From assembly GCF_024502345.1 (NCBI RefSeq), contig NZ_JALDNN010000001.1: 64,000 nucleotides of DNA. The stretch is one strand, 5' to 3'. Of the stretch, positions 1,996 through 33,220 are shown piece after piece. How positions within the stretch are numbered: position 1 is the stretch's first letter; each line of letters opens with the position of its first letter. This DNA comes from Escherichia coli. Lineage in GTDB: Bacteria; Pseudomonadota; Gammaproteobacteria; Enterobacterales; Enterobacteriaceae. The notes beneath the pieces were generated by a model, which made no database searches, had not been told where the DNA came from, and saw only the letters and a list, made by a program, of their open reading frames with translations. The translations under genes and the position numbers were made by a program.

Positions 1996-2694
1996 ATGAA
2001 TAAAATCCTGTTAGTTGATGATGACCGAGAGCTGACTTCCCTATTAAAGGAGCTGCTCGAGATGGAAGGCTTCAACGTGATTGTTGCCCACGATGGGGAA
2101 CAGGCGCTTGATCTTCTGGACGACAGCATTGATTTACTTTTGCTTGACGTAATGATGCCGAAGAAAAATGGTATCGACACATTAAAAGCACTTCGCCAGA
2201 CACACCAGACGCCTGTCATTATGTTGACGGCGCGCGGCAGTGAACTTGATCGCGTTCTCGGCCTTGAGCTGGGCGCAGATGACTATCTCCCGAAACCGTT
2301 TAATGATCGTGAGCTGGTGGCACGTATTCGCGCGATCCTGCGCCGTTCGCACTGGAGCGAGCAACAGCAAAACAACGACAACGGTTCACCGACACTGGAA
2401 GTTGATGCCTTAGTGCTGAATCCAGGCCGTCAGGAAGCCAGCTTCGACGGGCAAACGCTGGAGTTAACCGGTACTGAGTTTACCCTGCTCTATTTGCTGG
2501 CACAGCATCTGGGTCAGGTGGTTTCCCGTGAACATTTAAGCCAGGAAGTGCTGGGCAAACGCCTGACGCCTTTCGACCGCGCTATTGATATGCACATTTC
2601 CAACCTGCGTCGTAAACTGCCGGATCGTAAAGATGGTCACCCGTGGTTTAAAACCTTGCGTGGTCGCGGCTATCTGATGGTTTCTGCTTCATGA
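1996..2694 (+). CDS. cpxR: Response regulator CpxR, 232 aa
   Basis: ORF MNKILLVDDDRELTSLLKELLEMEGF..., OmpR-family receiver + winged helix; overlaps cpxA start by 4 bp. Confidence 0.95.
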   Translation: MNKILLVDDDRELTSLLKELLEMEGFNVIVAHDGEQALDLLDDSIDLLLLDVMMPKKNGIDTLKALRQTHQTPVIMLTARGSELDRVLGLELGADDYLPKPFNDRELVARIRAILRRSHWSEQQQNNDNGSPTLEVDALVLNPGRQEASFDGQTLELTGTEFTLLYLLAQHLGQVVSREHLSQEVLGKRLTPFDRAIDMHISNLRRKLPDRKDGHPWFKTLRGRGYLMVSAS

Positions 2695-4064
2695 TAGGCA
2701 GCTTAACCGCGCGCATCTTCGCCATCTTCTGGCTGACGCTGGCGCTGGTGTTGATGTTGGTTTTGATGTTACCCAAGCTCGATTCACGCCAGATGACCGA
2801 GCTTCTGGATAGCGAACAGCGTCAGGGGCTGATGATTGAGCAGCATGTCGAAGCGGAGCTGGCGAACGATCCGCCCAACGATTTAATGTGGTGGCGGCGT
2901 CTGTTCCGGGCGATTGATAAGTGGGCACCGCCAGGACAGCGTTTGTTATTGGTGACCACCGAAGGCCGCGTGATCGGCGCTGAACGCAGCGAAATGCAGA
3001 TCATTCGTAACTTTATTGGTCAGGCCGATAACGCCGATCATCCGCAGAAGAAAAAGTATGGCCGCGTGGAACTGGTCGGTCCGTTCTCCGTGCGTGATGG
3101 CGAAGATAATTACCAACTTTATCTGATTCGTCCGGCCAGCAGTTCTCAATCCGATTTCATTAACTTACTGTTTGACCGCCCGCTATTACTGCTGATTGTC
3201 ACCATGCTGGTCAGTACGCCGCTGCTGTTGTGGTTGGCCTGGAGTCTGGCAAAACCGGCGCGTAAGCTGAAAAATGCTGCCGATGAAGTTGCCCAGGGAA
3301 ACTTACGCCAGCACCCGGAACTGGAAGCGGGGCCACAGGAATTCCTTGCCGCAGGTGCCAGTTTTAACCAGATGGTCACCGCGCTGGAGCGCATGATGAC
3401 CTCTCAGCAGCGTCTGCTTTCTGATATCTCTCACGAGCTGCGCACCCCGCTGACGCGTCTGCAACTGGGTACGGCGTTACTGCGCCGTCGTAGCGGTGAA
3501 AGCAAGGAACTGGAGCGTATTGAAACCGAAGCGCAACGTCTGGACAGCATGATCAACGATCTGTTGGTGATGTCACGTAATCAGCAAAAAAACGCGCTGG
3601 TAAGCGAGACCATCAAAGCCAACCAGTTGTGGGGCGAAGTGCTGGATAACGCGGCGTTCGAAGCCGAGCAAATGGGCAAGTCGTTGACGGTTAACTTCCC
3701 GCCTGGGCCGTGGCCGCTGTACGGCAATCCGAACGCCCTGGAAAGTGCGCTGGAAAACATTGTTCGTAATGCTCTGCGTTATTCCCATACGAAGATTGAA
3801 GTGGGCTTTGCGGTAGATAAAGACGGTATCACCATTACGGTGGACGACGATGGTCCTGGCGTTAGCCCGGAAGATCGCGAACAGATTTTCCGTCCGTTCT
3901 ATCGGACCGATGAAGCACGCGATCGTGAATCTGGCGGTACAGGATTGGGGCTGGCGATTGTTGAAACCGCCATTCAGCAGCATCGTGGCTGGGTTAAAGC
4001 AGAAGACAGCCCGCTGGGCGGTTTACGGCTGGTGATTTGGTTGCCGCTGTATAAGCGGAGTTAA
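2691..4064 (+). CDS. cpxA: Sensor histidine kinase CpxA, 457 aa
   Basis: ORF with TM segments, HAMP, H-box SHELRTPLTRL and ATPase motifs. Confidence 0.95.
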   Translation: MIGSLTARIFAIFWLTLALVLMLVLMLPKLDSRQMTELLDSEQRQGLMIEQHVEAELANDPPNDLMWWRRLFRAIDKWAPPGQRLLLVTTEGRVIGAERSEMQIIRNFIGQADNADHPQKKKYGRVELVGPFSVRDGEDNYQLYLIRPASSSQSDFINLLFDRPLLLLIVTMLVSTPLLLWLAWSLAKPARKLKNAADEVAQGNLRQHPELEAGPQEFLAAGASFNQMVTALERMMTSQQRLLSDISHELRTPLTRLQLGTALLRRRSGESKELERIETEAQRLDSMINDLLVMSRNQQKNALVSETIKANQLWGEVLDNAAFEAEQMGKSLTVNFPPGPWPLYGNPNALESALENIVRNALRYSHTKIEVGFAVDKDGITITVDDDGPGVSPEDREQIFRPFYRTDEARDRESGGTGLGLAIVETAIQQHRGWVKAEDSPLGGLRLVIWLPLYKRS

Positions 4065-4074
4065 ACTCCGCATT

Positions 4075-4156
4075 TGTAGGCAGGATAAGGCGTTTACGCC
4101 GCATCCGGCATTTGAGCAGGATGCCTGATGCGACGCTGATAGCGTCTTATCAGGCC
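4075..4156. repeat. REP/BIME palindromic element
   Basis: Paired inverted REP-like units (ggataaggcgtttacgccgcatccggca / gcctgatgcgacgc...cttatcaggcctac) between cpxA and yiiM. Confidence 0.7.
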
Positions 4157-4169
4157 TACACTCCGGGGG

Positions 4170-4844
4170 TTATTTTCCCCACAACCGGCGGGAAAAATCT
4201 TCGATCTTGCCGCTCAGTCGGCGCTTTTGCATCGTCCGCGTCCAGCTTTTCGATAACCCGGCGGCGGAGAGTAAACGGTGATATTGATCGTCATCAAACG
4301 GCATATGCCATGCGATGGCGGCAGCCTCCTGCACGGTCACATCGCTGACACGGGAAACCAACTCCAGCGGCGCGTCCGCAGACACTTTCCCTGGCGCTAT
4401 CACGCTATACAACCACCCCACTTTACCCGTGTTTTGCATCAACTGCGCTATATCGCTGATATCAAAATGGTAATTGAGTTTATAGCAAGGCGAGCGCGGC
4501 TGGCTGACCTGAATTAATGCCTCTCCCCAGCGGAAAATATCGCCAATATAAACATTACTTTCCGTGAGACCGTCGGTTGAGAGATTTTCGCCAAACGCAG
4601 GCGCAACAAACAACTCCGCCTGTTCCGGAAATTCCCGCGCCCAGTAGAGATAATGCTCACGAGGATAATGACACAGCGCTCTGTCTGGCCCGCCGTGAAC
4701 CTTTTTCTCCGCCTGCTCGTCACCTTCCAGCCCCAGCTCCGTCAGCATCAACTCACCATCAACCTGGATTTTAGCAATTGCGCTGGGTTTGCCTTCGGGA
4801 TAAGCCTGAATCTTGCCTGTGTATACATCAACCGGATATCGCAT
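4170..4844 (-). CDS. yiiM: MOSC-domain protein YiiM, 224 aa
   Basis: ORF 4170..4874; recognised protein begins MRYPVDVYTGKIQAYPEG (internal Met at 4844). Confidence 0.85.
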   Translation of the reverse strand: MRYPVDVYTGKIQAYPEGKPSAIAKIQVDGELMLTELGLEGDEQAEKKVHGGPDRALCHYPREHYLYWAREFPEQAELFVAPAFGENLSTDGLTESNVYIGDIFRWGEALIQVSQPRSPCYKLNYHFDISDIAQLMQNTGKVGWLYSVIAPGKVSADAPLELVSRVSDVTVQEAAAIAWHMPFDDDQYHRLLSAAGLSKSWTRTMQKRRLSGKIEDFSRRLWGK

Positions 4845-4992
4845 CTGTTCCCTCTCCACGAGAAATTTCCCCATTAGACCATATTTATTTTATGTCAGGC
4901 GTGCTGTTTTCGCGGTAAGTATCCAGGCAGGACCTCAATAGCAAACCGGACGAACGTTAGTTCATCCGGCGGTGGGGATTAAGGAAGCAGGT

Positions 4993-5976
4993 TTATTTCA
5001 CCGTACCTAAAATTTCGATTTTCGCCGCTCTGGCTTTGACTTTACGTGACCAGATAGAGGTAAGAATTGGCACCAGAATCGAAGTCACAATGACTGCCGT
5101 CGCTACCAGCGAAGTTGCTGCCGGAGCCATCGGTTTAAACGCAGGCACCATTTCTGCAATCAGCACAGGTGTCGCTACCGCGGCCCCTGCGGAACTGGAA
5201 GCGGCAATTCCGGCAGTGCCATCGCCACCGCCAATCAATTTATCGGCGATAATCAACGGAATACCGGTCACGATAATTACTGCCACACCCAACAGGATCC
5301 CCAGCAAACCTGTCTGGGCAATTACAGTCAAATCAATGGTATTGCCCAGTGCGAAGGCAAAGAATGGAATCAGCGTCTGCACCGCTTTGCTGAAAAATTC
5401 TCGTAATTCAGGGTCAAGGTTCCCCAGGGCAAAGCCCACCAGGAACGGTAATACTGCGCCGACGAAAACATGCGGTTCAAACGAGGCAATCCCGGCAGTG
5501 CCCAGAATAATCATCGTCATGAGCGGCCCGGACTCCAACGACATCAACACAAATGCCCCAGCTTCTTCTTTTGTGCCGTACTGCTGCATGATGGAAGCGT
5601 AAAGTCCGCCGTTGGTCATATCCATCGCCGCCACCAGCGCCAGCGTTGAAAGTCCGGCAAAGAATCCAACTTCAACACCATGTTCCGGAATAATGCGCGA
5701 GGCAATTGCCGCAACCACCCACGCGACGGCAATTTTAGTTACCACCAGCGTACCGGATTTACGCAGTACCGTTCCCGTCGCGCTTAATTTTATTGACGCC
5801 CCCATGCAAAAAAACCACACCGCCAGAATGGGCACCGTACCGGTAATCATCCCGTTGGTGAATGATCCAAAATATTTCCCCGCCCCCGGCGAGAAGGTGT
5901 GGCACAGTGCGCCAAGGAATAGCGGGACGAGCATCATCCCCCCCGGGATTTTCTCAATCGAGTGTTTTATCTGCAT
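4993..5976 (-). CDS. kdgT: 2-keto-3-deoxygluconate permease, 327 aa
   Basis: ORF 4993..5985; recognised KdgT begins [20 protein letters not shown]; polytopic membrane protein. Confidence 0.9.
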
Positions 5977-28813: not shown

Positions 28814-28984
28814 TCTCTGACGTTTTCCGGGTGGCGCTGGTCGCCCGGATTACAGCTCATAGGGTGTGACGACACCATCTCTCGTATTCCGCGTTACCAC
28901 CTCAAGCTATGCCGCCAGTGCCGGTTTGGCCTCAATTTACCCACCACCACATCAATAAGGTTATGGGCATGAGACTGATGACAA

Positions 28985-29095
28985 GCGTAAGATTGCCTGA
29001 TGCGCTGCGCTTATCAGGCCTACCAATAAACTTCAATATATTGAATTTGCATGACTTTGTAGGCCTGATAAGGCGTTCACGCCGCATCCGGCATG
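28985..29095. repeat. REP/BIME palindromic element
   Basis: gcctgatgcgctgcgcttatcaggcctac ... gtaggcctgataaggcgttcacgccgcatccggca between fdhE and yiiF. Confidence 0.7.
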
Positions 29096-29142
29096 AACAA
29101 CGCGCACGTTGTCAGCAATCTGATTGACATCATTTTTTCCCA

Positions 29143-29361
29143 TTACCATTCCTCGCGCAGCTTACGCTGATATTCGACACCATCTTCCTCACACCCTTGC
29201 CAGATGCCAGGAACACTGGTTCTTGCTGTTTGCGATTGATTTATCAGGTATTGATCTACCGCTTCCCTTAATAGGTCCGCACGAGGAAGATTACGCTGCA
29301 CCTCGAGATCATCAAGTTGCTTAATCACCTCATTCGATAAATCGAGTAAAATTCTGCCCAT
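29143..29361 (-). CDS. yiiF: Ribbon-helix-helix (CopG-like) small DNA-binding protein, 72 aa
   Basis: ORF 29143..29385; recognised protein starts [39 protein letters not shown] (RHH fold signature). Confidence 0.75.
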
Positions 29362-29477
29362 ATCTATACCTACCAGAGAGTTCATAAATATCTCGCCAAT
29401 ATCATTTTTGAATCTATGGAGAGAAAAGTACCCTTGTCGAATCTTTAAAGAAAGCTCATTTACGAATCATTTTTTAT

Positions 29478-29499
29478 TTTTGCGAGGCGTTTTCCAGAT
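29478..29499. repeat. Copy A of a conserved ~22-bp element (tttttgcgaggcgttttccaga), about 115 bp upstream of yiiF
   Basis: Identical 22-mer also at 29927-29948; near-identical at 31151-31171. Copies A and B additionally share gttgcagtt 13 bp further on. Confidence 0.85.
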
Positions 29500-29604
29500 A
29501 TGATGTAACAGTTGCAGTTATTATAAGTTCAAGTAAAACAACCTTGTATTAATACCAGAATAAGGGCATCTGGTTTTTTATATTCAAGAATAAAAAAATT
29601 TTTG

Positions 29605-29823: not shown

Positions 29824-29926
29824 TACCACCACCTTACATATATTACTCATTAATGTATGTGCGAAAATTACGCCGGAAAATCATTTAAAAAAAGCGGATT
29901 TTTGCATGTCGTTTTGTTTTTGCGAG

Positions 29927-29948
29927 GCGTTTTCCAGAAATAATAAGA
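29927..29948. repeat. Copy B of the conserved 22-bp element, about 105 bp upstream of yiiE
   Basis: Exact 22/22 match to copy A. Confidence 0.85.
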
Positions 29949-30252
29949 GCGTTGCAGTTGTTTCATTTATTACTCAAAAATGGTTTAGTTATCGCCCAGG
30001 ATGAGTTATGGATGCTATGAATATATTATATTCAGGGATGTTTATTTTTTGATTGGATCTTTATTTGCATAATCTGAATGGTGTACCCGAAAAATGTCAG
30101 CATCCTAACAGCACCCGGATTTAAGGTGAAATTAATCATCCATCACAGACCGGTCAGTACTGCCACCAACCGGTCTTTACTTGTTCATCGTTATAATTTT
30201 GTTGGTAACAGTTCGGGAAACAAGGAATTCCTTCCGGAACCCCCCGGTATCA

Positions 30253-30342
30253 TCCGATAGCATTGACGTCAATCATCAGCGCGACGATGAGTTTTTTTAA
30301 TCGCATCATAGGGTGGCGACGTTCAGCACGATTACGGGTCAT
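30253..30342 (-). CDS. Candidate small ORF, 29 aa (MTRNRAERRHPMMRLKKLIVALMIDVNAIG), unknown function
   Basis: ATG preceded by AGGAG at 8-nt spacing (plus-strand ctcct 30351-30355); the ORF itself is below the ORF-track length cut-off. No homology recognised; may be spurious. Confidence 0.2.
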
Positions 30343-30427
30343 AGCAAAACTCCTGGGCAGGCGACCACTATGCCGCTTTCACAGGAGTTCTGAATGCTAG
30401 TGCTTTCTGTATGGCATAACCATGCCT

Positions 30428-30718
30428 CTAACGGTTAAGTGCTTGCAGCACATGTTGCGGATCATTGGCAATCGCTCGCAGCAAAGCCTTTGCAGGCCCG
30501 GTCGGTGAACGTCGCCCCTGCTCCCAGTTACGCAACGTGTCTACGCTTACAGAAATAAGATCGGCAAATTTAGATTGTGACAACCCTGAAGCGCGGCGTA
30601 TTTCTTTGATTTTCATAGCATCAACTTCAAAAGTCCGCGAAGGCTGTCGCGTTCCTTCAATAATTTCATTCATCTGGGCCATGCTGTGAGTCAACCGCTC
30701 AAAAAGTGCCTTATCCAT
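30428..30718 (-). CDS. XRE-family helix-turn-helix antitoxin (HigA/NadS-like), 96 aa
   Basis: ORF MDKALFERLTHSMAQMNEIIEGTRQPSRTFEVDAMKIKEIRRASGLSQSKFADLISVSVDTLRNWEQGRR...; HTH motif; ATG immediately abuts the stop of the upstream toxin-like ORF. Confidence 0.75.
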   Translation of the reverse strand: MDKALFERLTHSMAQMNEIIEGTRQPSRTFEVDAMKIKEIRRASGLSQSKFADLISVSVDTLRNWEQGRRSPTGPAKALLRAIANDPQHVLQALNR

Positions 30719-31030
30719 TTACCACCTCGTATTTAACAACCGGAGCATTGCTTTTCCCAGGGGAGACAGATCATCTTTAATACCCTTACGATAAATAAGC
30801 AGTAATCTGATCTCATAATGTTTAACCTGATGAAAGTAAATAACCCTGACACCAGCACGTTTCCCCTTTCCTCCTGACACCCATCGAACCTTTCTTAACC
30901 CACCAGTTTCAGGTATTACCTCACCATAGTCAGGATTCAAGGCTAGGAAAAACTGAAAACGACGGAATTCATCGTCGTTCAGCAGTTTTTGAACATCTTC
31001 AGTAAAAATTTCCGTTTCGATGAAGGGTAT
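30719..31030 (-). CDS. RelE/HigB-superfamily toxin-like gene (DUF1044 addiction-module killer type) lacking a canonical start codon; possibly inactive
   Basis: Frame open from stop at 31073-31075 down to 30719: ...IVIPFIETEIFTEDVQKLLNDDEFRRFQFFLALNPDYGEVIPETGGLRKVRWVSGGKGKRAGVRVIYFHQVKHYEIRLLLIYRKGIKDDLSPLGKAMLRLLNTRW. No ATG/GTG upstream of the TTG at 30940; the position where a start is expected from the family's typical N-terminus (M-x-FIET) is ATA (31028-31030). Confidence 0.55.
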   Translation of the reverse strand: MPFIETEIFTEDVQKLLNDDEFRRFQFFLALNPDYGEVIPETGGLRKVRWVSGGKGKRAGVRVIYFHQVKHYEIRLLLIYRKGIKDDLSPLGKAMLRLLNTRW

Positions 31031-31150
31031 AACTATACGCCATTGGCTTAGAGTAACAATCCTTTTTGTACGTCATTGACGTACCCTTGAAACCACTAGC
31101 TTACTGATAGTGCTCCAGCAAAACCCCGTCTCTGCCGGGTTTGTCTTTAC

Positions 31151-31171
31151 TTTTGCGAGGCGCTTTCCAGA
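31151..31171. repeat. Copy C of the conserved element (ttttgcgaggcgctttccaga), between the toxin-like gene and the esterase gene
   Basis: 20/21 match to copies A/B; lies about 80-120 bp upstream of the toxin-like reading frame on the minus strand and 12 bp upstream of a GTG on the plus strand. Confidence 0.8.
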
Positions 31172-31246
31172 TTTTCCACATCCGTGAATTTCCCTGTATC
31201 CATCCAGCAGAAACGAGTGTATAAAACTGTACATTCATACAGCAAG

Positions 31247-32167
31247 ATGAGTTCTACTATGGCACTGGAAAAAGGAATTGCAGAGTTAGTCGAAGAGTTT
31301 ATCGCTGCGGGTCGCCCCTCATCGCGTCAACAAAGTATTGCACAGCGCAGGGAGGGCTATATCGCCAGCGCTGTCCTTGCGGGTGAGACAGAAACGCGGG
31401 TAGATATTCAGACTATCGAACTTGAAGGGATGACCTTACGAATAGTGTCACCGCTGAATGCCCCGACATTACTCCCGACGATAATTTATTACTACGGTGG
31501 CTGTTTTGTTAGCGGCGGGTTCGCAACTCACGACAACCAGCTGCGCCAGTTAGCCTATTACGGGCAATGTCGTGTTATTGCCGTCCAGTATCGGCTGGCA
31601 CCGGAACATACTTTCCCCGCCGCCCATGATGATGCGCAACGAGGTGCAGAATTAGTCTTGCAACACGCCGAACGACTTGGCGTTGATAAACAGCGGATAA
31701 CTCTTGCCGGTGACAGTGCGGGCGGACATCTGGCGCTGGTAACTGCTTTGCGATTAAAGCGTGCTGGCGAGTGGCAACCTGCACAACTCATATTAATTTA
31801 TCCCATGCTTGATGCGACTGCGCATTTCGAAAGCTATATCCGCAATGGTCACGATTACATCATCACACGCGATACTCTACTGAGCGGCTTTGAGATGTAC
31901 CTACCAGATATTGATCGCAAGCATCCTGAAGCCAGTCCTCTATGGCGAGATGATTTTAATGGCTTGCCGCCTGTACATATCATTACCGCTGAATACGACC
32001 CACTTTGCGATGAAGGTGAAGCGTTGTATCACCGCATGACCGAGCAAGGAGTGCAATGTACCTGCCAACGCTACCCTGGCGTTATCCACGGATTTTTTCA
32101 GTTAGGTGGTATCAGCGAGGCCGCGCGATCGGCACTACGGGATGTTGCCTGGAGAGCGGGAAGGTAA
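31247..32167 (+). CDS. Alpha/beta-hydrolase, family IV (HSL/Aes-like) esterase, about 307 aa
   Basis: ORF 31184..32167; oxyanion-hole region YYYGGCF, nucleophile elbow GDSAGG, DPLCDEG and C-terminal HGFF catalytic-His motif. Start chosen at first ATG (31247); GTG at 31184 also possible. Confidence 0.75.
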   Translation: MSSTMALEKGIAELVEEFIAAGRPSSRQQSIAQRREGYIASAVLAGETETRVDIQTIELEGMTLRIVSPLNAPTLLPTIIYYYGGCFVSGGFATHDNQLRQLAYYGQCRVIAVQYRLAPEHTFPAAHDDAQRGAELVLQHAERLGVDKQRITLAGDSAGGHLALVTALRLKRAGEWQPAQLILIYPMLDATAHFESYIRNGHDYIITRDTLLSGFEMYLPDIDRKHPEASPLWRDDFNGLPPVHIITAEYDPLCDEGEALYHRMTEQGVQCTCQRYPGVIHGFFQLGGISEAARSALRDVAWRAGR

Positions 32168-32182
32168 CTTCGGACCTGGGCC

Positions 32183-32215
32183 CTGAAAAGGTTTTCAGAT
32201 TGAAAACCTTTTCAG
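32183..32215. terminator. Perfect 14-bp-stem hairpin between convergent esterase gene and yiiD
   Basis: ctgaaaaggttttc-agatt-gaaaaccttttcag, exact inverted repeat, U-rich on both strands. Confidence 0.6.
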
Positions 32216-32230
32216 TCAAGTAAAACGCCC

Positions 32231-33220
32231 CTACTCTTCTTCGTTCCCGCCCTCTTCATACGGGCCAAATGGCTTCGCGGGCAGAACGATATACGTGCCT
32301 TCAAACACTGCACCCGGCGTCTCGTCGCCAAAGATTTCAACTTGCATCTGCACCCGTGCTTTTCGTCCGCGCGCCAGACGGTCGAGATCGCCGCTTAAGG
32401 CACCAAGGTCGGCTACCGCATGGGGTTTACCGCTAATCGGTTTGCTGTAGCGGATATGCGCATCCGCCAGAATAATCGTTCCGCCGAGGTGGCGTTCACG
32501 CAGCATCAGCCAGATAAGCCCCCAACCGGTGAGCGTCGCCAGCGAGAATAAACTCCCGGCAAACAGCGTATGGTGCGGATTCTGATTGCCGGTTTCCGGC
32601 ATGGTGGTGATAAATTTTTGCCCGGTATATTGTTGAATACGCACGCCCATTTTTTCACTAAGCGGGATATGTTCGTACCACGCCTGTTGCAGCTGCGCGC
32701 ACCAGTCGCCGCGATGCAAAATATCATCCAGAGTGGCGACGGGCTTAATCATCAAAAAATGGCGAATCGGCGTGGTGGTTGGCGTGGTGATTTCTCCCTG
32801 ATTAACAAACCCCAGCTTGGCGAAAAACTCCACCGCGTCTTCACGGGCGCTACAGGTCACGCGCTTAACGCCTTCCTGACGCGCCACCGACTCTAGGGTC
32901 ATCGCCATCAGCGTTCCTAACCCTTTGTCCTGCACGTCCGGGTGAACGGCCATAAAGCGAATGGACGCTTCATTGTCGGCATTAATATACAGTCGGCCTA
33001 CCGCCACCAGATTACCCTGCTCGTCGACGACCATCTGGTGATGCGCCATCGCATCCCACGCGTCGCGTTCCGAACCTTTTGGTTGATGCAGGGGCTTACG
33101 CAACATTTCCCAGCGAAACTGATAGTAACGCTCTAATTCTTCTTCTGTTTGTGGAACCCGAAGGTGATACATAGCGATACTCTCTCTTGTTTCCCGTGAC
33201 AACCCTGGAAGCTGGCTCAT
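32231..33220 (-). CDS. yiiD: GNAT acetyltransferase / thioesterase fusion protein YiiD (FabY), 329 aa
   Basis: [49 protein letters not shown]... Confidence 0.9.

Follow-up and report, generated by a model that had tools for sequence, protein, structure and literature searches.

A family-IV esterase resident between fdhE and fabY in Enterobacteriaceae and probably lost by deletion from half of Escherichia coli

We have examined an esterase gene in a stretch of 64,000 nucleotides of Escherichia coli DNA (assembly GCF_024502345.1, contig NZ_JALDNN010000001.1; the whole stretch is referred to as the window). Very probably, this gene encodes a cytoplasmic family-IV esterase which is a long-term resident of its locus and has been removed by deletions from about half of E. 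coli, the hairpin behind it being a relic of a higBA module and Tyr79 of its oxyanion loop a change specific to E. coli. The original prediction had presented the gene as cargo. In our reading it is a widespread enterobacterial esterase, carried by roughly half of E. coli, including UPEC, non-O157 EHEC and commensal strains, and amounts to a missing annotation, not to a new kind of system.

The gene and its immediate neighbours are as follows.

31259-32167, plus strand: esterase coding sequence, 302 aa, TAA stop codon at 32165-32167; family IV (HSL-type) alpha/beta-hydrolase of the GDSAG subfamily
31184-31258, plus strand: in-frame upstream extension of the open reading frame, from GTG 31184; the start in RefSeq and in every ortholog corresponds to ATG 31259
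30428-30718, minus strand: HTH (XRE) antitoxin gene, annotated as NadS family (HTH_3, E=7.5e-10; NadS, 60.7 bits against a cut-off of 60)
30719-31030, minus strand: RelE/HigB-like toxin reading frame, read from translation and a three-way alignment; annotated as a RelE/ParE toxin in one genome
32231-33172, minus strand: fabY (yiiD/madA), the convergent neighbour, with YiiD_C and GNAT domains; RefSeq annotation

The longest open reading frame extends from GTG 31184 to 32167 (327 aa), and the gene had been given this span. The frame itself is real, but the start lies 75 nt too far upstream of ATG 31259. The shorter form (302 aa, beginning MALEKGIAE) is supported by the RefSeq start in strains M8 and UTI89 and by the orthologs of other genera, all of which begin with MALEKGIA or MVLEKGIA. 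The stretch 31184-31258 is probably untranslated and would serve as 5' leader and promoter region; a promoter scan found no sigma-70 consensus on the plus strand upstream of the esterase. As had been stated, the gene points away from the toxin-antitoxin (TA) pair on the minus strand (30428-31030) and towards the convergent yiiD/fabY, on which the map of reading frames and the RefSeq annotation agree.

Assignment of the protein to family IV is supported by profile, catalytic motifs and fold. All of the motifs named in the original prediction (GDSAGG, DPLCDEG and HGFF) were found in an intact alpha/beta-hydrolase, which matches the Pfam profile Abhydrolase_3 (PF07859) with E=1.7e-70, scoring 237.5 bits where 25 are required; the match spans residues 100-305 of the long reading frame and positions 1-209 of the 210 in the profile. 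The catalytic residues were located as follows.

31709-31726, plus strand: nucleophile elbow G-D-S153-A-G-G, with the Ser153 codon at 31715-31717 (sequence reading and alignment)
31997-31999, plus strand: catalytic acid Asp247, within DPLCDEG (invariant in the alignment)
32087-32089, plus strand: catalytic base His277, within HGFF (invariant in the alignment)

Their conservation, on which the assignment could have foundered, is complete in a 31-sequence alignment, where Ser153, Asp247, His277 and the oxyanion glycines G80 and G81 are invariant together with G151, D152, A154 and G155; in wider sets of aligned relatives Asp occupies position 247 in 139 of 140 and His position 277 in all 138. The nearest solved homologs, sought as had been proposed, are the family-IV esterases EH1AB1, LAE6, PestE and Est8 (E from 1e-50 to 1e-53, the first three at about 1e-53), with which the HGGG, GDSAG, DPL and HGF blocks align. 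An AF2 model (pLDDT 91.5, pTM 0.93; core confident throughout) consists of N-terminal helices at 5-16 and 27-41 plus a beta-sheet core, and Foldseek placed it at TM 0.89-0.94 to the HSL esterases LAE6, Est8, EH1AB1 and PestE. Enzymes of family IV are built of a cap and a catalytic domain and carry GXSAG and HGGG motifs, two glycines forming the oxyanion hole (PMC8767022, PMC5070724, PMC10099132). The protein thus combines the family-IV/HSL profile, the fold with an N-terminal helical cap, the GXSAG motif and the Ser-Asp-His triad.

Closer identities were considered and rejected. The best-scoring NCBIfam model was that of the LipP1 family HSL (NF058653), which reached 245.8 bits over residues 32-322 of the long reading frame, below its cut-off of 350. 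The gene had been called Aes-like, which holds at the level of a paralog, but it is not Aes itself (acetyl esterase NF007547, 146.5 bits against 389). Chloramphenicol hydrolase EstDL136 (NF033149) was likewise discarded, with 169.3 bits against 500, and the protein stays below the cut-off of each of the GESAG, GTSAG and GCSAG subfamily models. Since it scores under every NCBIfam equivalog cut-off, no substrate can be transferred to it from a characterised enzyme, and a literature search found no report of an enzymatic assay, expression or phenotype for this protein or any ortholog. From its sequence and family, we predict a cytoplasmic serine carboxylesterase with broad specificity for short- to medium-chain esters. 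By analogy with the family, Ser153 of GDSAGG would attack the ester carbonyl, His277 and Asp247 would act as the proton relay, main-chain amides of Gly80, Gly81 and Ala154 would stabilise the oxyanion, and the N-terminal helical cap would gate the pocket.

The distribution of the gene argues that it has long resided in the fdhE-fabY interval, and its description as imported cargo is not supported. Orthologs (70-83% amino acid identity) are present in 61 species representatives of the Enterobacteriaceae, the next relatives reaching only 34-42%, and the arrangement fdhE, esterase, then fabY and dtd in the opposite orientation is found in nearly all 61. Identity of the esterase follows that of its flanks (Pearson 0.72, 1176 species pairs), and its GC content (51.8%) is close to that of the window (50.8%). 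The dN/dS values, 0.10-0.11 within E. coli and 0.07-0.10 between genera, indicate a gene which evolves fast, yet is under purifying selection.

In E. coli itself the gene is present in 2673 of 5426 complete genomes. It had been described as missing from K-12, and it is indeed absent from the K-12 derivatives MC4100 and J53. The segment concerned was delimited by BLAST of the window against MC4100.

30221-32230: window segment lacking in K-12, 2010 bp

This segment takes in the last part of the yiiE-TA spacer, both TA genes, the esterase and the spacer with the hairpin, and its right edge coincides exactly with the fabY stop codon. It is shorter than the roughly 2.4 kb proposed for an accessory islet.

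That proposal (the TA pair and the esterase as an islet of about 2-2.4 kb, inserted horizontally between yiiE and yiiD, with the esterase as TA-stabilised cargo) draws on several real observations: the segment is missing from K-12 and O55:H7 and occurs in only 49% of complete genomes, the TA genes have a lower GC content (44.8%), and E. coli esterase alleles are less similar (95.4% at the nucleotide level) than the flanking genes (98-99%). Allele replacement at this locus is also seen in Salmonella, where the flanks of subsp. salamae and arizonae are 98.5% identical and their esterases only 75.7%, a mismatch which shows that such replacement occurs. Against it stands a gene order that is constant in dozens of genera, 50 of the 61 esterase-bearing species representatives having no trace of the TA pair. 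The GC content of the esterase is native, and the low-GC foreign DNA lies in K-12 and O55:H7. No mobility genes were found in 30221-32230, nor any integrase, att-like repeats or tRNA at its flanks. The marks of a horizontally acquired islet (odd composition, mobility genes or att boundaries, a syntenic site that is empty in related genera) are thus lacking here. With the O55:H7 junction described below, which looks like a deletion product, we consider the islet very unlikely and largely refuted by synteny.

No Escherichia species representative was among the matches of the species-level ortholog scan, which implies that retention in E. coli was accompanied by several losses in sister species. 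Re-import of the esterase into E. coli by homologous recombination is possible.

The esterase adjoins fabY in nearly all orthologous loci, and in nearly all of the 61 species this adjacency is kept, often with 8-45 bp between the stop codons, which could suggest functional coupling to FabY, a malonyl-ACP decarboxylase/GNAT protein (PMC8666670), for instance in the hydrolysis of acyl esters or thioesters during initiation of fatty-acid synthesis. We regard such coupling as highly improbable, because convergent genes cannot be co-transcribed, K-12 and O157-type strains possess FabY without the esterase, distant relatives of the esterase (34-42%) have no fabY nearby, and the interval between esterase and fabY accommodates TA modules.

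In K-12, contrary to the original prediction, yiiD does not directly follow yiiE; the site is occupied by 474 bp of unrelated, AT-rich DNA (33% GC). In O55:H7 it holds a 2.3-kb cassette of 38% GC, to whose right end the K-12 filler is 96.6% identical. The filler matches this cassette only, and no esterase remnant was found in K-12. In terms of sequence, K-12 and O55:H7 carry a low-GC foreign cassette or its stump. In strain P31_YH1 the esterase and the low-GC cassette are found side by side. The route between these states is suggested by a repeat, one copy of which lies in the window.

30348-30453: one copy of a repeat of about 105 bp, comprising the 3' end of the antitoxin gene and its downstream flank

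Some E. coli have a second copy directly after the esterase, at the edge of the low-GC cassette, and positions 3983-4086 of locus L091 match the window copy at 85%. The O55:H7 junction is a hybrid repeat, its left half of the window type and its right half that of the cassette copy, and it keeps the 3' flank of the antitoxin gene; both features identify it as what remained once the TA pair and the esterase had been deleted.

We propose that, in some strains, the cassette lay on the right-hand side of the esterase, that recombination between the two repeats would then have removed the TA pair and the esterase to give the O55:H7 state, and that a further deletion would have produced that of K-12. 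Strain SC434, in which 5' and 3' stumps of the esterase lie next to an intact higBA, points to a second route, an internal deletion of the esterase in that lineage. The order of these events is our inference from sequence comparison, with at least two routes of loss in E. coli. Synteny, native GC content, divergence that tracks the flanks, foreign DNA in K-12 and O55:H7 and the hybrid-repeat junction together reverse the polarity of the acquired-islet reading. That K-12 lacks the gene is no sign of acquisition, and K-12 appears to be the derived, deleted state. The locus is a clear case in which to follow the probable turnover of TA modules and of a low-GC cassette around a resident gene, with a repeat-deletion junction that can still be read.

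The TA genes themselves seem to come and go. Citrobacter farmeri as well as Salmonella subsp. salamae and arizonae have, at the equivalent place, an antitoxin with 86-88% amino acid identity. The M8 copy of the toxin gives a weak match to the RelE profile PF06296 (E=0.0045), and in the window the toxin start codon is ATA in place of ATG; a megablast search with a 28-nt exact word, which would detect this exact start variant only, found no match in other genomes. Turnover around the esterase would involve a RelE/NadS or vapBC pair on its left and a higBA pair on its right; Citrobacter, Salmonella and one E. coli lineage have the latter in the interval from esterase to fabY.

A trace of the right-hand module may survive in the window.

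32183-32215: palindrome with a 15-bp stem and a 3-nt loop, in the 63-bp spacer between esterase and fabY

A perfect hairpin at the 3' end of the gene had been predicted with a stem of 14 bp; the hairpin is perfect, but 15 bp were counted, positions 32183-32197 being fully paired with 32201-32215. Its predicted fold is stable (MFE -27.3 kcal/mol in a 76-nt context, z = -3.95; 1 of 200 shuffles as stable). An intrinsic (Rho-independent) terminator was rejected, since the stem is A/T-rich, no T-run follows the hairpin on either strand and the terminator scan made no call. Nor is it a dispersed REP-like repeat, as it is single-copy per genome and confined to this locus in 2308 genomes. Its core, GTTTTCAGATTGAAAAC, aligns with TTTTCA-NN-TGAAAA palindromes that immediately precede higB in Citrobacter, Salmonella, Pluralibacter, Pseudocitrobacter and E. 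coli SC434. The hairpin behind the esterase stop codon is therefore probably what remains of the operator region of a lost higBA module, rather than a dedicated terminator, and we take this "terminator-like" element for an orphaned operator. As an RNA hairpin it may still serve the two transcripts that converge here.

Another feature of this esterase concerns the loop that forms its oxyanion hole, which in Aes has the canonical form HGGG.

31493-31504, plus strand: oxyanion-loop motif Y79-G80-G81-C82, YGGC in place of the family HGGG

This motif had been overlooked in the original prediction. Among close orthologs, 114 of 120 have HGGC, and YGGC is confined to the six clusters nearest the query, which are 90-98% identical to it and of which three are source-named E. 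coli; in a set of diverse relatives, 142 of 145 have His at position 79. The Tyr codon TAC lies within a 45-mer that 2636 of 2638 E. coli genomes share without a difference; with the His codon in its place, the 45-mer had no match. The replacement of His79 by Tyr is, at the sequence level, a lineage-specific change which is common to all E. coli copies and rare in the family, while the change of the third motif Gly to Cys extends to the whole enterobacterial clade. Both hole-forming glycines, G80 and G81 (for their role see PMC5070724 and PMC8767022), are kept and invariant, although the motif as a whole reads YGGC. Mutagenesis of the motif His is not among the experiments in PMC10099132, PMC5070724 and PMC8767022, where the residues tested are the glycines and the one that follows the motif. 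A Tyr in the HGG motif of the E. coli enzyme raises a testable structure-function question for family-IV esterases.

Two opposite consequences of this change can be envisaged. The first is decay: the E. coli copy might be crippled by the loss of a His that nearly all diverse relatives possess and that is replaced for good only in E. coli, and hence be deleted repeatedly, as the at least two independent routes, the 51% of genomes without the gene and the lost start codon of the neighbouring toxin might indicate. We find this doubtful, considering that a full-length, intact reading frame is present in about 2636 E. coli genomes, that dN/dS within E. coli (0.10) is not above the between-genera value, that Gly80, Gly81, Ala154 and the triad are intact and that the modelled core is confident throughout. 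The second is that the fixed substitution was not neutral and retuned the enzyme, giving a lineage-specific activity that is selected in half of E. coli and dispensable in the rest. The Tyr hydroxyl could aid stabilisation of the transition state, or the preference for substrate or acyl transfer could be shifted. This, too, we consider unlikely; if true, it would mean an esterase activity particular to the lineage and upheld by selection in half the species. A related and similarly tentative idea is that the esterase acts as a fixed "anchor" between two recurrent sites of integration and decay of TA modules.

Several known systems can be set beside the resident esterase favoured here. The metagenomic esterases EH1AB1 (PDB 6i8d) and LAE6 (5jd4), PestE from Pyrobaculum calidifontis (2yh2) and Est8 (4ypv) share its fold of cap and catalytic domain, with roughly 35-45% identity over the latter and aligned GDSAG, DPLxDEG and HGF loops; they carry HGGG where the E. 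coli protein has YGGC, and they are not its orthologs. EH1AB1 is a broad-range, substrate-promiscuous esterase (bioRxiv 10.1101/2022.09.10.507389), and a similar promiscuity or chain-length preference of the E. coli protein is, by analogy, only a lead. Aes (ybaC; PDB 4krx) belongs to the same family (Abhydrolase_3/HSL) and host species, is cytoplasmic and has the same triad layout (phmmer E=5e-31), but it is a paralog encoded at another locus. HjEstP1/LipP1 of Haloarcula japonica (PMC11614938) is likewise a family-IV enzyme, intracellular and devoid of a signal peptide, but is archaeal and halophilic.

As regards gene order, the closest parallel is STM4032 of Salmonella Typhimurium, a putative ortholog, reported as the single gene between the TA modules sehAB and sehCD (PMC3868539, the only hit of the literature search, since retracted and used here for gene order only). 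It is flanked by a HigBA-like module and, on the opposite side, by a RelE/HTH one, and in Salmonella subsp. salamae, arizonae and diarizonae the esterase occupies an STM4032-like position. In the E. coli window the higBA side of this arrangement is gone, and the palindrome alone is left of it.

The esterase gene described in the original prediction is real, apart from small corrections to its start and to the stem length of the hairpin that follows it, and it already carries a generic annotation in RefSeq. The longest open reading frame on the plus strand extends from a GTG at 31184 to the TAA at 32165-32167 (327 aa), and this start, adopted previously, is placed 75 nt too far to the 5' side. 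The RefSeq annotation of M8 and UTI89 begins the same gene at the ATG that corresponds to 31259, for a length of 302 aa, and the orthologs of other genera, whose N-termini read MALEKGIA or MVLEKGIA, all begin at that position. Because these two sources agree, we define the coding sequence as 31259-32167. The ORF map and the annotation bear out the proposed arrangement, in which the esterase is divergent from the TA pair and convergent with its right neighbour:

30428-30718, minus strand: HTH/NadS antitoxin gene, half of a two-gene TA module
30719-31030, minus strand: RelE/HigB-like toxin gene, the other half of this module
32231-33172, minus strand: fabY (formerly yiiD), convergent with the esterase

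The gene is present in 2673 of the 5426 complete E. coli genomes and, as stated in the original prediction, is missing in K-12 derivatives; it is also missing in O55:H7. Its interpretation as cargo of an accessory islet acquired together with the TA pair is not supported. Orthologs with 70-83% amino acid identity occur in 61 Enterobacteriaceae species representatives (the genera include Citrobacter, Pseudocitrobacter, Superficieibacter, Enterobacter, Klebsiella, Kluyvera, Kosakonia, Leclercia, Lelliottia, Raoultella and Salmonella subspecies), beyond which identity drops to 34-42%, in unrelated phyla. Nearly all of the 61 have fdhE upstream, in the same orientation as the esterase, and fabY-dtd downstream in convergent orientation. 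The GC content of the gene (51.8%) is close to that of the window (50.8%), and although the esterase evolves much faster than the flanking fdhE and fabY, its identity correlates with theirs (Pearson 0.72, 1176 species pairs). These data argue for the reverse polarity, i.e. a resident gene that would have been lost, not gained, by the strains without it. One caveat comes from Salmonella subsp. salamae and arizonae (L009 and L065), whose fdhE and fabY flanks are 98.5% identical while their esterases share only 75.7% (dN 0.17, dS about 2), a divergence equal to the between-genus level. This points to replaced or very old alleles; near-identical flanks around divergent esterases indicate that replacement by recombination does occur at this locus. 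Two of 2675 esterase matches fall on plasmid-labelled records, which could be misassigned replicons or real transfer.

The manner of the loss can be read from the junctions. When the window is compared with the K-12 derivative MC4100, homology ends at 30220 and resumes at 32231, exactly at the fabY stop codon; the intervening K-12 filler (474 bp, 33% GC) shares 96.6% identity with the right end of a cassette (2.3 kb, 38% GC) occupying the same site in O55:H7. Strain P31_YH1 carries both the esterase and the cassette, the latter abutting the esterase stop codon on its right side, together with two directly oriented copies of a sequence of about 105 bp:

P31_YH1, repeat copy 1: shortly after the antitoxin gene (corresponds to window 30348-30453)
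P31_YH1, repeat copy 2: left edge of the cassette
L091, 3985-6350: low-GC cassette
L003 (O55:H7), 2848-5140: low-GC cassette
L002 (K-12), 2600-3074: remnant of the cassette

In O55:H7 the junction is chimeric, its left part matching copy 1 and its right part copy 2, which is the product expected from recombination between the repeats with deletion of the antitoxin, toxin and esterase genes. Such an event would have produced the O55:H7 state, and a later deletion within the cassette the K-12 state, in which just the final ~474 bp are left, an annotated pseudogene fragment among them; we infer this order from the structure of the junctions. The cassette contains a 304-aa ORF and a truncated 297-aa ORF; for the former, annotations differ between two genomes (“transposase” and “hypothetical”), and a Pfam search with it returned nothing above threshold. 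In the soil isolate SC434 the esterase is reduced to its first ~29 nt and last ~55 nt, a second, independent loss.

TA modules turn over on both sides of the gene. Across species the fdhE-esterase gap is bimodal (modes of about 150-350 and about 860-970 bp), and the long form holds either a RelE/NadS-type pair or a vapBC pair. The former was found in 10 of the 61 species representatives (antitoxin identity 85-88%), with an antitoxin fragment only in an eleventh; coupling of the esterase to the TA pair is therefore unlikely, the pair being absent next to most orthologs. The vapBC pair of C. youngae (L018 4180-4850; PIN E=9.5e-18, RHH E=1.1e-6) has an antitoxin clearly homologous to E. coli YiiF (window 29143-29385), and the vapC-yiiF pair is intact in SC434 (L093 1816-2432). 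Only about 70 nt of vapC are left in the window and in K-12, the remainder being replaced by about 228 bp of other sequence (28906-29133), so that YiiF is an orphaned antitoxin in both. The esterase-fabY gap of the species representatives measures 3-45 bp or roughly 150-870 bp, and the long form, in the loci opened, contains a HigB/HigA module (L018 6016-6770; HigB_toxin E=1.1e-22). The constancy of fabY at this border might be taken as a sign of functional coupling, but this is unsupported: the two genes are convergent, and K-12 FabY works without the esterase. In S. Typhimurium the gene order sehAB, STM4032, sehCD (PMC3868539; a retracted paper, from which only the order is taken) fits an esterase with TA modules on either side.

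The fdhE-to-TA stretch also varies within E. coli (L004, UTI89, 2242-2520; L092, S87, 1542-2786; L091, 1608-2160): UTI89 lacks yiiF, some strains carry additional small ORFs (92 and 70 aa, hypothetical), and others an inserted DUF6708 gene pair. The upstream regions of yiiF and yiiE (29440-29522 and 29879-29962) share a segment of ~84 bp with about 77% identity, so the control regions of these two orphan RHH genes appear paralogous. In the window, the toxin start codon (31028-31030, minus strand) is ATA, compared with ATG in M8 and UTI89, as part of three clustered substitutions (MLFI to IPFI). There is no in-frame upstream ATG, GTG or TTG, and this strain may not translate the toxin; the ATA variant, searched as a 45-mer, matched none of the 5426 complete genomes. 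The divergent intergenic region contains a perfect palindrome, GTACGTCA-T-TGACGTAC (31068-31084), just upstream of the only sigma-70-like promoter called there (31059 to 31032, minus strand). This promoter would drive the TA operon; the palindrome is probably an antitoxin operator and could also influence esterase transcription.

A perfect hairpin does follow the gene, as predicted, with a stem of 15 bp rather than 14: starting fifteen bases past the stop codon, 32183-32197 pairs with 32201-32215 around a 3-nt loop (folding energy of the 76-nt context -27.3 kcal/mol; compared with shuffled sequences, z = -3.95). In 2308 genomes the hairpin is single-copy and confined to this locus. No T-run adjoins it and a terminator scan made no call. 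The hairpin core, GTTTTCAGATTGAAAAC, can be aligned with one of a pair of TTTTCA-NN-TGAAAA palindromes located between the esterase stop and the higB start in Citrobacter, Salmonella diarizonae, Pluralibacter and Pseudocitrobacter, and at the same place in E. coli SC434; the alignment establishes homology at the sequence level. The stretch just before the start codon of a TA module is the usual position of an antitoxin operator. On both grounds we read the hairpin as a remnant of a higBA control region that would have persisted after deletion of the module; the operator function, like any present-day role of the hairpin, is putative.

A feature overlooked in the original prediction concerns the oxyanion hole. 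Family IV is defined by the motifs GXSAG and HGGG, and the hole is formed by the two central glycines of HGGG and the Ala following the Ser (PMC8767022, PMC5070724, PMC10099132); we found no mutagenesis of the motif His in these papers. In the esterase the equivalent motif is Y79-G-G-C82. HGGC is found in 114 of the 120 closest database clusters; YGGC is confined to the six nearest the query sequence (identity 90-98%), of which three are source-named, all as E. coli. Of 145 aligned relatives (from 150 diverse representatives of 50%-identity clusters), 142 have His here; Tyr appears once, in a fragment. A 45-mer across the Tyr codon TAC has the same sequence in 2636 of the 2638 E. coli genomes carrying it, and the same 45-mer with CAC (His) had zero matches among the E. 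coli genomes searched. Together, these counts make His79-to-Tyr a fixed, E. coli-specific substitution at a nearly invariant position. Despite it, the gene is still constrained, with dN/dS of 0.10-0.11 within E. coli (dN 0.015 and dS 0.156 for the window compared with UTI89) and 0.07-0.10 between genera. Most esterase-carrying genomes are 95-97% identical to window 31184-32215 and only 6 of 2673 match it at 99% or more (best, mouse strain M8, 99.0%), so this strain holds an uncommon allele of a fast-evolving gene. The value of specialist follow-up is limited to two points, the His-to-Tyr change and the readable history of deletion and TA turnover.

The family assignment is correct. All three motifs named previously were found in the sequence:

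31715-31717, plus strand: Ser153, nucleophile elbow GDSAGG
31997-31999, plus strand: Asp247, acid loop DPLCDEG
32087-32089, plus strand: His277, base loop HGFF

These catalytic residues, as well as Gly80, Gly81, Asp152, Ala154 and Gly155, are invariant in a 31-sequence alignment, and the Pfam profile Abhydrolase_3 matches with E=1.7e-70. The AlphaFold2 model built from this alignment (pLDDT 91.5, pTM 0.93) and the solved homologs concur. No NCBIfam equivalog cut-off was reached (LipP1 245.8, cut-off 350; chloramphenicol hydrolase 169.3, cut-off 500), which indicates a separate, uncharacterised orthologous group inside family IV, and our literature search found no publication dealing with the esterase or its orthologs. 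Judged from sequence, the N-terminus has no signal-peptide character, hence a cytoplasmic location is predicted. The best-supported description is a predicted cytoplasmic serine carboxylesterase, which would act by the canonical family-IV mechanism. Its substrate range is probably broad, by analogy with its nearest characterised relatives, the substrate-promiscuous EH1AB1 (bioRxiv 10.1101/2022.09.10.507389) and the intracellular family-IV esterase HjEstP1 (PMC11614938), an extrapolation given that no equivalog threshold was reached.

To conclude, the esterase is a new member of a very well-known enzyme family. The nearest solved structures by sequence are the family-IV (HSL-type) esterases EH1AB1 and LAE6 (E~2e-53), PestE, Est8, AFEST and EST2, and the model superposes on such enzymes with TM 0.89-0.94, so that EH1AB1, LAE6, PestE and Est8 are relatives in both fold and sequence. 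E. coli Aes, in contrast, is far more distant (5e-31, and 146.5 against an equivalog cut-off of 389) than these other family-IV esterases.
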